Positions 27,721-29,992 of a DNA stretch of 64,000 bases are shown piece after piece. Each line of letters opens with the position of its first letter. Positions within the stretch are counted from its first letter, which is position 1. The notes under the pieces were generated by a model. The model saw nothing but the letters and a program-made list of their open reading frames with translations, was not told where the DNA came from and ran no database searches. Source of the stretch: a virus (taxonomy: Duplodnaviria; Heunggongvirae; Uroviricota; Caudoviricetes; Crassvirales); the IMG/VR virus record IMGVR_UViG_3300029521_000003. The stretch is one strand, 5' to 3'. The position numbers were made by a program, and so were the translations under genes.

Positions 27721-28012
27721 GTTACCAGAATCAGCTAATCACTTTAAAGAGATAGTAAAAGGAATGATTTCTACTTATGTTAGAAAGAATCATGACTATG
27801 GTAATTCCTTTGAAGTATCTATGAATGAAGAGGGTCTTGCTGCTGCAAGAATAAGACTGGGTGATAAATGGCTAAGATTCAAACAGTTATCTAAAGGTGA
27901 GAAGGCTCTTGTAAAGGATGAATCTATTAGAGATACATTGCTTGATATGGCTAATTATGCTATTATGACAGTAATGTGGATGGATAATCAGAATAAAACT
28001 TGTAAAGCATGA
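27686..28012 (+). CDS. hypothetical protein (weak resemblance to all-alpha NTP pyrophosphohydrolases)
   Basis: 108 aa, predicted helical, with charged clusters (KNHDYGNSFE, LGDKWLR, DESIRDTLLDMANYAI). The canonical MazG ExxE motif is not clearly present. Confidence 0.3.
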   Translation: MEEMMKAAEEPKLPESANHFKEIVKGMISTYVRKNHDYGNSFEVSMNEEGLAAARIRLGDKWLRFKQLSKGEKALVKDESIRDTLLDMANYAIMTVMWMDNQNKTCKA

Positions 28013-28431
28013 TTATAGCAGTAGATTTTGATGGAACCTGTGTCACACATGAGTTTCCATATGTAGGAAAAGAAATAGGAGCAGCAGAAGTCTTGAAAGA
28101 ATTGACTGATAAAGGTCATAAGATTATACTGTTCACTATGAGAAGCCATCCTGAGGAGATAAACCAGAATAGAACTATTGGTGGGGATATTATTAGTAAT
28201 GACACTCTACAAGATGCAATAGACTGGTTTAAGAAACATGATATTCCTTTGTTTGGTGTAAATGAAAACCCAACTCAAAAGGATTGGTCCTCTTCACCTA
28301 AACCTTATGCTCACATCTATATTGATGATGCAGCTTTAGGAGTTCCCTTGAAGAAGGATTCTCTTTCAGAGAAACCTTATGTGGATTGGGATATAGTTAG
28401 ATATTATCTTCATGCAAAGAGTATATTATGA
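28009..28431 (+). CDS. HAD-superfamily phosphatase (putative nucleotidase)
   Basis: HAD motif I MIIAVDFDGTCV (DxDGT) at the N-terminus. Motif IV HIYIDDAA near the C-terminus. 140 aa. Confidence 0.5.
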   Translation: MIIAVDFDGTCVTHEFPYVGKEIGAAEVLKELTDKGHKIILFTMRSHPEEINQNRTIGGDIISNDTLQDAIDWFKKHDIPLFGVNENPTQKDWSSSPKPYAHIYIDDAALGVPLKKDSLSEKPYVDWDIVRYYLHAKSIL

Positions 28432-28697
28432 CAGAAAAACAGGAGAGATGGCAGAAAAGAAATAGGATACTTTGGAGATTAAAAGGGATAAGTATTCCTA
28501 CATATGGAACCAGTATATTAACTGCTACTGAAATTGAGAAGTTGTCACAAGCTTTTTCTTTAATTAGAGAGGTAGTAAAGGATTCAACTCAGTCCAGTAG
28601 AGAGTTAGGTTTCAATGCTATAGAGAGATGTAAGATTTGTGGCAAGCCTATGTATAAAAATGGCTTGTGTAAAAAGTGTTATTCTATAAATTATTAA
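28428..28697 (+). CDS. zinc-ribbon protein
   Basis: C-terminal CKICGKPMYKNGLCKKCY (CxxC-x9-CxxC). Confidence 0.4.
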   Translation: MTEKQERWQKRNRILWRLKGISIPTYGTSILTATEIEKLSQAFSLIREVVKDSTQSSRELGFNAIERCKICGKPMYKNGLCKKCYSINY

Positions 28698-28698
28698 T

Positions 28699-29013
28699 AT
28701 GGCAGGACAACAAGGAATTTATTGTGCCCCAGATAATATAGTCCCTAATAGGGATAGGGTAGATGTAGGTTGTGCTCCTGATGGAGCAATGCAACTCTGG
28801 GTTATGGAATATGAAGTTACTGGTATAGGTAAGGGATGTGCAATGTGTAAGGCTATTAATCCTCAACAAGCAGAGATGCTCTTGAAGAGTAATGGTATAT
28901 ACAATGGTAGTTCATATCTGTATAAAGTAACAAGAATTGAGCAGGTTATTGTACCTCCTTGTAATGGTCTTATGGCTGAACAAGTGGTAACTTATAAAGA
29001 TGTAGTGTCATGA
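28699..29013 (+). CDS. hypothetical protein
   Basis: 104-aa ORF, tightly packed between neighbours. Confidence 0.4.
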   Translation: MAGQQGIYCAPDNIVPNRDRVDVGCAPDGAMQLWVMEYEVTGIGKGCAMCKAINPQQAEMLLKSNGIYNGSSYLYKVTRIEQVIVPPCNGLMAEQVVTYKDVVS

Positions 29014-29552
29014 ATAAGAAACTTAGGTTATTAGTAACAACTAAATGTCCTAACAAATGTCCCATGTGTTGTAATAACTCATGGGATTTTTCATCTTTAC
29101 CAGTAGTGGATAGATGGGACTATGAAGAGATAATGATAACTGGAGGAGAACCTTTAATTCACACTAATAAAGTAGCTGAATTAATAAGGTCTATTCGAGT
29201 TATTAGTGAAGTTTATACAGATATTCCAAAGGTATATGTGTACACTTCAATAGCTGCTTGGAACAGATTAAGGACTATATTAGCTTATGCAGATGGTGTA
29301 GTCTTGACTCCTCACAGTCAGATTGATATTGATAGGTTTGTGGAACTGAACAGTATGATGCAAGAGGTTAAGGAAACTAAATCTGATTTCATTAAAGGGA
29401 AATCTCTTAGACTTAATCTCTTTGCTGATATGAAACTTCTCCTTCCTGAGCACATTGATTTGTCACTGTGGAATATCAAGGAAATGGAGTGGGTAAAGGA
29501 TTGTCCAGTACCACAGGGTGAAGATTTCAGAAGGATTAAGGAACTTTGGTGA
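29010..29552 (+). CDS. radical SAM enzyme, organic-radical-activating family (NrdG/QueE-like)
   Basis: CxxxCxxC cluster TTKCPNKCPMCCNNSW at nt 29046-29069, similar to T4 NrdG VTGCLHKCEGCYNRSTW. SAM-binding glycine motif IMITGGEPL (T4 NrdG LTLTGGDPL). 180 aa. Confidence 0.55.
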   Translation: MNKKLRLLVTTKCPNKCPMCCNNSWDFSSLPVVDRWDYEEIMITGGEPLIHTNKVAELIRSIRVISEVYTDIPKVYVYTSIAAWNRLRTILAYADGVVLTPHSQIDIDRFVELNSMMQEVKETKSDFIKGKSLRLNLFADMKLLLPEHIDLSLWNIKEMEWVKDCPVPQGEDFRRIKELW

Positions 29553-29992
29553 TGAAGCAATTTACACATAGAGAGTTTGTTAGGGTGGTAGTAGCCAATG
29601 GTTTCTATTATGACAGACATAATGGAGACCATGCTATCTACCTTAATGAAAAAGGCAGACATATTAGCATCCCATTAAAACTTGAAAGTGTTATTGCTCG
29701 AAGACTTATAAAAGAAAATAATTTAGAGACAGATATTAAGAAACTTAAAAAGGAAAAGAGAATGAACAATGCACCATTAGGGGCTGATGAAGACCCCAGA
29801 GCACCTTGGAACCAACCTCTTGATGTAAAGCATAAGAGGTTTGTGAGTGTAACCATATCATATTATGATGAGGTTGAATTACCTCCAGATGCAGAGGAGG
29901 AACAGATTAATGAAGCCTTTCATAAAAAGGTAGAAGATGCTGAGTTTCCTAAAGAGTTTGATATTGATGAAGTTGTAGTAATAGATGATTAA
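29552..29992 (+). CDS. HicA-like mRNA interferase domain fused to a C-terminal acidic extension
   Basis: MKQFTHREFVRVVVANGFYYDRHNGDHAIYLNEKGRHISIPLKLESVIARRLIKENNLE aligns along the length of E. coli HicA (MKQSEFRRWLESQGV...GSNHLKL...GRRSVMPRHP...LRKAILKQLGL), including the catalytic His. The track ORF starts at TTG 29546; ATG 29552 gives a TGATG overlap with the upstream gene. Confidence 0.55.
   Translation: MKQFTHREFVRVVVANGFYYDRHNGDHAIYLNEKGRHISIPLKLESVIARRLIKENNLETDIKKLKKEKRMNNAPLGADEDPRAPWNQPLDVKHKRFVSVTISYYDEVELPPDAEEEQINEAFHKKVEDAEFPKEFDIDEVVVIDD

Follow-up and report, generated by a model that had tools for sequence, protein, structure and literature searches.

A HicA-family domain joined to its own conserved, non-HicB companion in a crassvirus gene that is split or fused among related phages

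Single-chain toxin-antitoxins such as CapRel(SJ46) and EzeT carry a toxin together with a non-toxin domain that inhibits it in cis. For the HicA toxin, both two-gene and fused arrangements were catalogued by Gerdes (2024) among 14 hicA contexts, of which classes 1 and 11–13 all contain a recognisable HicB; crassviruses are not mentioned in that catalogue (PMC10865869). Class 1 consists of hicA followed by a small HicB of 60–90 aa without a DNA-binding domain, often overlapping it, and includes a representative in Planktothrix phage PaV-LD (PMC10865869). Class 11 comprises HicA-HicB fusions with a helix-turn-helix (HTH) or ribbon-helix-helix (RHH) domain, and classes 12 and 13 show the reverse domain order; an autoregulatory DNA-binding domain on the antitoxin is lacking in classes 1 and 2 (PMC10865869). 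Among crassviruses, gp55 of Bacteroides phage crAss001 (AXQ62698.1) carries the public label 'HicA toxin (mRNAse)', and 'mRNAse' is the annotation given to the homologs of gp55 in cr106_1 and cr112_1. The gp55 gene is a middle gene, and degradation of host mRNA by the 'HicA mRNAse' was proposed by the crAss001 authors, so that a role in host shut-off is not a new idea (PMC8375218). The HicA identity of the gene is thus published and its annotation is present in public genomes; a literature search found no publication on the gp55-type protein itself. Herein, the gp55 ortholog encoded in IMG/VR record IMGVR_UViG_3300029521_000003, a 64,000-nt stretch of crassvirus DNA (hereafter the window), is analysed and found to consist of a HicA-family domain joined to its own conserved companion, which is not a HicB. 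What is new is that a large, uncharacterised crassvirus protein family is the constant companion of HicA in these phages, that this family is distinct from HicB, and that it has been repeatedly fused to and split from hicA.

The gene occupies positions 29552..29992 on the plus strand, exactly the interval reported in an earlier note made from the DNA alone, and comprises 146 codons followed by a TAA stop (29990-29992); both the open reading frame (ORF) list and the sequence give a product of 146 aa. The upstream gene ends in a TGA stop (29550-29552) whose final base is also the A of the start ATG at 29552. The window belongs to Kehishuvirus, and the 4 kb around the gene show ~90% DNA identity to crAss001 and to the PhiCrAssBcn isolates. 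In tblastn searches, the gp55 proteins of these phages were 90–93% identical to the window protein (crAss001 itself, 90% at the amino acid level). In total, 335 homologs of the window protein were found, mostly of 145–150 aa and carrying the Pfam family PF07927. The earlier note had described the product as an orphan HicA-like toxin and had suggested a cis-inhibitory or targeting function for its acidic C-terminal extension. The toxin-like domain and the acidic module were both recovered, and a cis-acting role is part of the explanation favoured below; the orphan status was contradicted by the related genomes.

Residues 1–59 (29552..29728, plus strand) are a basic (pI ~10) member of the HicA family of RNases, whose fold resembles a double-stranded-RNA-binding domain (dsRBD); residues 1–70 together have a pI of 10.0 and a net charge of +7. 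The Pfam model HicA_toxin (PF07927) matches residues 7–53 over model positions 2–49 of 58 with 29.9 bits, above the gathering cutoff of 27 (E = 6.2e-7), and PHROG 353 ('toxin') matches with E = 6.3e-7. A profile search with the crassvirus HicA alignment against PDB sequences gave no match, so that a fold search was needed. In the full-length AlphaFold2 (AF2) model, built on 28 homologs and reaching a mean predicted local distance difference test score (pLDDT) of 81, the domain follows the order alpha-beta-beta-beta-alpha (helix 6–15, strands 19–24, 27–31 and 37–41, helix 46–55) at pLDDT 78–89. The top Foldseek matches in the PDB are all HicA structures, namely 1whz, 5yrz_B (S. pneumoniae) and 6g26_E/F (B. 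pseudomallei), with probability 0.99–1.0, target-normalised template-modelling scores (TM-scores) of 0.64–0.77 and root-mean-square deviations of 1.8–2.5 Å. The assignment of the first ~60 residues to HicA in the earlier note, including the fold for which it had asked a check, is therefore confirmed.

The conservation pattern within this domain points in the same direction. Across 28 homologs of 48–99% identity, residues G25, H27, G35, H37 and R51 do not vary, and G25 and H27 are likewise invariant in 13 HicA domains. In characterised HicA toxins, the His of the G-x-H motif, near the start of strand 2, is the catalytic His. H27, previously put forward as the catalytic residue, is conserved accordingly and is best described as putative: BLASTP against E. 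coli HicA sets G25-D26-H27 opposite G-S-N-H23 with an offset of one residue, and for this reason the residue-level equivalence of H27 and H23 is one that we infer. Judged from its sequence and fold, the domain is probably catalytically competent as an RNase. A different proposal would be that it is a non-catalytic, dsRBD-like RNA binder that takes the acidic domain to RNA or to the ribosome, or that takes part in RNA repair or processing with a phosphatase, a kinase and an RNA ligase. This would accord with the annotation of the bajarodcaudo virus homolog as a 'putative RNA binding protein, dsRBD-like fold', with the position of an RNA ligase gene, which in cr116_1 is the next gene upstream of hicA and in IAS virus lies close by, and with the polynucleotide kinase and phosphatase genes of the operon. 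Pure RNA binding, however, would not require the His of the G-x-H motif, which is invariant, and we consider the proposal quite unlikely.

The remainder of the protein is strongly acidic, residues 71–146 having a pI of 4.2, a net charge of -14 and 21 Asp or Glu among 76 residues. It opens with MNNAPLGADEDPRAPWNQ (29762..29815, plus strand), an N-terminal motif that is conserved throughout the partner family and has the consensus P-x-G-A-x3-5-A-P-W/F/Y-N, which is predicted to be flexible (pLDDT 55–65). There follows a folded acidic core at residues 96–144 (29837..29983, plus strand), which represents the short form of the family and is supported both by AF2 and by homology to stand-alone proteins. 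The core is predicted as a strand (97–103), a helix (116–128) and a strand (137–144), with pLDDT 85–95 in full-length and domain-only AF2 models alike, and residues 96–146 have a pI of 4.05. The most conserved residues of the partner family lie in the flexible stretch before this core, in the form P-x-G-A-x3-5-A-P-W-N. In alignment A1, P5, G7, A14, P15 and N17 are invariant and W16 is present in 7/8 sequences; in alignments A2, A4 and A5, the same motif residues are invariant or nearly so. Long-form partners have an additional hairpin and an insert relative to the short form of the window, and the stand-alone homologs of the core measure 77–139 aa.

The family defined by this domain is crassvirus-specific and mostly stand-alone. 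An exhaustive profile search gave 789 clusters at 50% identity (269 at E <= 1e-10); a separate search, in which the number of candidates was capped, yielded more than 3000 clusters at 90% identity above its threshold, a lower bound. Most members are stand-alone proteins of 90–135 aa, and the listed members with long contigs lie on contigs of ~95–107 kb, which is the size of a crassvirus genome. Two variations on the domain were also observed. When positions 29900-29992 of the window were compared with loci L001, L002 and L006, the last ~25 residues of the partner were found to be of two types, ...AFHKKVEDAEFPKEFDIDEVVVIDD and ...ALEEKVRRQDFPKEVDFDEIVILEE, shuffled among HicA halves that are otherwise almost the same, a pattern suggestive of intragenic recombination. 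In addition, three HicA-less contigs carry, ~400–600 nt upstream of the partner, an ORF of 83–95 aa with the core MTKLVGIKATVTMSRTLYIEVPEEATEEEILKK...DLKDWEVTEYDIKP (L049 2357-2644, L054 2385-2636, L080 2378-2629), which resembles a further copy of the beta-alpha-beta core that lacks the motif.

Whether the partner is a HicB was addressed at several levels, and the statement of the earlier note that HicB is missing was upheld at each. None of the 10 neighbouring proteins matches a HicB family, and a hidden Markov model (HMM) of the HicB N-domain found no match among the 476 ORFs of at least 40 aa in the window, by which a HicB elsewhere in the window was rejected. HicB was absent from the Pfam results for the tail, for three split partners and for 148 diverse family members; no HTH or RHH match was found by Pfam in the tail or its homologs; NCBIfam and PADLOC returned no antitoxin match for the partner; and a search of PDB sequences with a partner profile gave no support for a HicB. 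An hhalign comparison of the partner with a HicB N-domain alignment gave a probability of 0.1–0.4%, a negative result weakened by the shallowness of the HicB profile, which was assembled from E. coli HicB homologs, mostly E. coli fragments, and two PDB HicB fragments. Foldseek against BFVD with the short-form partner model, the only form covered by the fold model, matched unnamed family members only. Long-form partners may have the strand-strand-strand-helix-strand order of HicB. With Pfam, NCBIfam, PADLOC, the PDB profile search and hhalign all negative, the identification of the tail as a HicB was rejected; a DnaJ-like match at residues 103–126 was dismissed as lying far under threshold.

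The nature of the tail became evident from the related genomes, several of which align to the window protein in two pieces, or at residues 57–136 or 71–135 only, in tblastn searches. Annotated records show that this is because the tail is a separate gene in those genomes. Pamirivirus cr116_1, Paundivirus IAS virus, Kahnovirus cr85_1 and bajarodcaudo virus 1 encode a hicA of 67–69 aa followed by a separate tail homolog of 93–118 aa; the two genes overlap in cr116_1, IAS virus and cr85_1 and are ~100 nt apart in bajarodcaudo virus 1. The gene thus has a partner after all, lying directly downstream of hicA in these four phages and in most IMG/VR relatives. The earlier note had held that a HicB-like gene adjacent to hicA in relatives would make this an ordinary toxin-antitoxin (TA) pair; an adjacent partner gene does exist there, but it was not HicB-like in any of the tests applied, so that no ordinary TA pair results. 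Kolpuevirus cr126_1 and PhiCrAssBcn14-18 have the tail gene only, without HicA. Their partner-only ORFs carry the label 'HicA toxin' or 'mRNAse', transferred from the fused crAss001 gp55; examples are WCF58719.1 of PhiCrAssBcn18 (L002 3001-3234) and QOR59544.1 of cr126_1 (L006 2543-2773).

These comparisons, together with the confidently predicted fold of the core, leave little room for the view that the gene encodes a partnerless HicA toxin whose Asp/Glu-rich tail is largely disordered and which is deployed as a decoy or to shut off host mRNA. In favour of that view, the HicA domain is genuine and HicB is absent, and during crAss001 infection, in which gp55 is a middle gene, host transcripts fall genome-wide at 10–30 min (PMC8375218). 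Nevertheless, the core is folded and homologous to a separate downstream gene in related genera, and both 'orphan' and 'tail' are consequently misdescriptions; we regard this view as extremely unlikely. A role in host shut-off would be compatible with the other explanations and stands as a proposal.

The linkage between the two halves was quantified by running HMMs of both on six-frame ORFs of the fetched loci. In a sample seeded with the partner (n = 90; 82 loci from IMG/VR, 7 from GenBank and the window), the halves were fused in 10/90, adjacent or overlapping in 64/90 and separated, with HicA 110–640 nt upstream, in 4/90, while a HicA gene was undetectable within 3 kb in the remaining 12. 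Two of these 12 loci, L055 and L057 (2858-2983), contain a hicA pseudogene with an in-frame stop and an intact partner directly downstream; a LAGLIDADG-like ORF of 234 aa lies further upstream. In the reciprocal IMG/VR sample, seeded with HicA, a partner was located downstream in all 80 loci (49 fused, 25 adjacent and 6 split by 564–661 nt, with nothing but an inserted HNH homing endonuclease ORF in between), and a HicA without a partner was found in 0/80. Among five divergent representatives of the partner family, one (P0360) has a hicA overlapping the partner, one has hicA upstream with a Cpn60 gene in between, and three have no HicA. Wherever it is visible, the partner lies just upstream of a thyX or thioredoxin gene.

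The insertions of 550–660 nt between hicA and partner are intact, free-standing homing endonuclease ORFs of the HNH/NUMOD type, 161–197 aa long and placed exactly between the two genes (L106 1785-2270; L116 1774-2367; L163 1804-2337; L025 2517-3014). A truncated copy of 100 aa is present in L043 (1433-1735). Furthermore, the gene between hicA and partner in a divergent crass-like contig (L174 865-2373) encodes a 502-aa protein of the Cpn60/GroEL family, which would be a phage-encoded chaperonin.

The point at which the halves meet was compared across 90 loci. In the window, residues 60–70 form a Lys/Arg-rich junction, ETDIKKLKKEKR (29729..29761, plus strand; pLDDT 58–69), corresponding to the basic C-terminal end of a stand-alone HicA, and in relatives this place is taken by the HicA stop codon and often by a run of seven to ten A. 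Immediately after it stands an internal in-frame ATG encoding Met71 (29762..29764, plus strand), which is homologous to the start codon of the separate partner genes in PhiCrAssBcn18, cr126_1, cr116_1 and IAS virus and has been kept in frame within the window fusion (alignments A1 and A3). In many lineages, the partner ATG is directly preceded by a poly(A) run of 7–10 bases, for instance in L005 (2690-2710) and around 2975-2990 in L014, L016, L019, L020 and L052, and run length is all that distinguishes close relatives, which cover all three frames: A7 is fused, A8 shifted by +1, A9 by +2 and A10 fused again. A table of 134 distinct junctions comprises 53 fused and 81 split cases; 48 have runs of A8–A10, and all but 3 have A-runs of 4–10. 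This length variation could stem from population variation, from transcriptional or translational slippage, or from homopolymer assembly error.

The window junction itself, AAAAAGGAAAAGAGAATGAAC, is not homopolymeric and is common to the whole Kehishuvirus-like group, whose 146-aa proteins extend to ~50% identity. A sequencing frameshift artefact was rejected as the origin of the fusion, because dozens of independent contigs, as well as the isolate genomes of crAss001 and PhiCrAssBcn, have the fused form with this non-homopolymeric junction. In Kehishuvirus, the fusion is stable, and selected or at least well tolerated. Fused junctions of at least five different sequences occur across short-form and long-form partners, and such recurrent fusion is a classic signature of functional or physical coupling.

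Taken together, these data lead us to favour, tentatively and short of regarding it as probable, the explanation in which the partner serves HicA as a cognate modulator, functioning in the manner of an antitoxin and, in the window protein, in cis. The ancestral state, retained by most related crassviruses, would be a two-gene cassette of hicA followed by the partner, overlapping or a few bases apart, placed shortly before thyX within a middle-expressed operon of replication and nucleotide-metabolism genes. The HicA stop would have been lost in the Kehishuvirus lineage through a change of frame at the A-rich junction, and the in-frame fusion would have become fixed. The acidic partner may bind the basic RNA-binding face of HicA and restrain or direct the RNase, acting in cis as in the single-chain toxin-antitoxins, and an mRNA interferase would thereby be available to the phage in middle infection without uncontrolled damage. 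The data show the domain identities, the homology between split and fused forms, the pattern of co-occurrence and the absence of HicB; the RNase activity, the physical interaction and the direction of regulation in this scheme are what we infer. Several features argue for it besides the recurrent fusion. The partner survives without HicA, whereas HicA was never seen without the partner, an asymmetry typical of a toxin and its neutraliser. In addition, the toxin-first order is that of hicAB, the charges of the halves are complementary (+7 versus -14), the partner evolves faster (mean column identity 46–60% in partner alignments A1, A2 and A4 versus 80% for HicA), and the divergent lineage P0360 retains the pair.

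Several observations weigh against a cognate modulator. The AF2 model of the fusion has a predicted template-modelling score (pTM) of 0.44 and no confident domain docking, with the linker and motif at pLDDT 58–69, and the prediction of the partner core is no better when HicA is present. The partner resembles none of the known antitoxins searched. Its family is far wider than the link with HicA, and lineages without HicA show full conservation of both the acidity and the APWN motif, which argues for a target other than the phage's own HicA. That HicA is never found alone may be trivial if the partner is near-core and hicA was acquired once beside it, and fusion across a slippery A-run could be neutral. 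Start/stop overlaps of the ATGA type occur at nearly every gene pair of the window operon, so the overlap of hicA with its neighbour is not specific evidence of TA coupling and was rejected as such.

Much of this evidence would be expected if the partner were an independent, near-core acidic protein with a target of its own, such as a protein of the host or an enzyme binding nucleic acids, which it would mimic or block by means of the APWN peptide, and if the fusion were incidental. The hicA gene would then be a dispensable accessory inserted upstream, a slippage-prone, A-rich overlap would repeatedly fuse and split the two ORFs, and the halves would work independently. Loci without detectable HicA (12/90, and 3 of the 5 divergent representatives) keep the partner in the same slot upstream of thyX or thioredoxin with motif and acidity intact, and the size of the family (789 clusters at 50% identity), the occurrence of close relatives in all three frames by run length at A-rich junctions, the HNH endonuclease or Cpn60 genes that can separate the halves, the lack of interdomain packing in AF2 and the universal start/stop overlaps in the operon all fit as well. 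Against it stand the fixation of the fusion, with both halves under purifying selection over Kehishuvirus-like sequences of 48–99% identity, the independent fusions, at least five in number, the complete lack of partner-less HicA in 80 loci, and the expectation that a free RNase toxin domain would need control. An incidental fusion is a serious possibility, towards which we nonetheless do not lean.

The modulator hypothesis also has an extended form. The partner would represent a new, non-HicB class of proteins that neutralise or direct HicA; in phages lacking hicA, it might act as a stand-alone inhibitor of host HicA-type toxins or of other basic, RNA-binding defence toxins, and the A7–A10 junction would toggle between tethered and free forms, either within the population or through slipping polymerases or ribosomes. 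In this full form, the hypothesis is unlikely.

The toxin-first, TA-like layout of the two genes also raises the possibility of a persistence (addiction) module, in which cells losing the non-integrating phage genome would be penalised, the RNase being stable and the partner labile, and a carrier state would thereby be aided. The persistence of crAss001 does not involve lysogeny, and its proposed basis is a carrier state or pseudolysogeny (PMC8375218). However, the window and all Kehishuvirus sequences encode a single polypeptide, for which differential stability would need processing. The gene also has no DNA-binding or autoregulatory domain and lies inside a long middle operon rather than in an autonomous cassette, and HicA has been lost repeatedly without visible consequence. 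Altogether, we hold such a role to be very unlikely.

The surroundings of the gene in the window agree with the neighbours named in the earlier note. Upstream lies a radical S-adenosylmethionine (radical SAM)-like gene, recognised by a Fer4_12 match under the Pfam cutoff, whose crAss001 counterpart, gp56, is annotated as an HxsC-like maturase; downstream lies ThyX (Thy1, E = 3e-33), the counterpart of crAss001 gp54. The ten neighbours examined comprise a DUF1599 protein, a HAD-like phosphatase, a zinc-ribbon protein, the crAss portal vertex auxiliary protein, the radical-SAM-like protein, ThyX, a VWA protein, an unassigned ORF, a small unassigned protein and another unassigned one. The portal vertex auxiliary homolog (28699-29013; Pfam crAss_PVA, E = 1e-64), two genes upstream of the HicA fusion, is a virion protein, yet it is encoded in the middle of a replication and nucleotide-metabolism operon. 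Comparison of positions 28009-28697 with L001 (2516-4146) indicates that crAss001 gp59 (orotate/hypoxanthine phosphoribosyltransferase) and gp61 (polynucleotide kinase) are apparently missing from the window; in this stretch, the phosphatase gene abuts the zinc-ribbon gene, with the DUF1599 gene upstream. In cr116_1 (L003 1776-2504), the gene directly upstream of hicA encodes an RNA ligase, and in IAS virus (L004 1235-1963) a radical-SAM-like gene is placed between the RNA ligase gene and hicA. With a kinase and a phosphatase gene also in the operon, an RNA ligase near hicA hints at a theme of RNA cleavage and repair.

In the human gut, crass-like phages are more abundant than any other viruses, and for most of their small genes no role has been assigned. 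Once gp55 is seen to be two genes joined into one, the loose designation 'HicA toxin' gives way to a module of two components that can be tested, a conserved RNase and a widespread, uncharacterised family of acidic partners. Should the partner control HicA, it would constitute a new type of antitoxin, and the natural series of fused and split loci would offer a view of how single-chain toxin-antitoxins originate; if it acts independently, the locus would be no more than a phage gene already known and annotated, fused to its neighbour. Mis-annotations are corrected as well, namely the labels 'HicA toxin' and 'mRNAse' on partner-only ORFs in the GenBank records of several crassviruses.

Compared with described systems, the window gene is nearest to crAss001 gp55, with which it has in common the fused 146-aa architecture and the neighbours; nothing substantive differs, and the public annotation of gp55 covers the HicA half only. 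Considered alone, the partner recalls Ocr, ArdA-like proteins and some anti-CRISPRs in being small, very acidic (pI ~4.2), phage-encoded and often stand-alone. It differs from these small acidic mimics of nucleic acid in that its conserved element is the N-terminal P-x-G-A...A-P-W-N peptide, and neither sequence nor fold similarity to them was detected. As a fusion, the window gene parallels the class 11–13 HicA-HicB proteins, CapRel(SJ46) and EzeT, all of which combine a toxin and a companion in one chain and have split versions in relatives; those, however, are bacterial defence genes, whereas the window gene is located in the replication operon of a lytic phage. The class 1 hicAB modules resemble the crassvirus pair in their toxin-first order, in the small size of the partner (76–139 aa here) and its lack of a DNA-binding domain, in their overlapping or tight linkage and in being phage-borne, and they differ in that the crassvirus partner is not HicB-like. 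By analogy, the window gene may work like a fused class 1 module in which the place of HicB is taken by a companion specific to the crassviruses.

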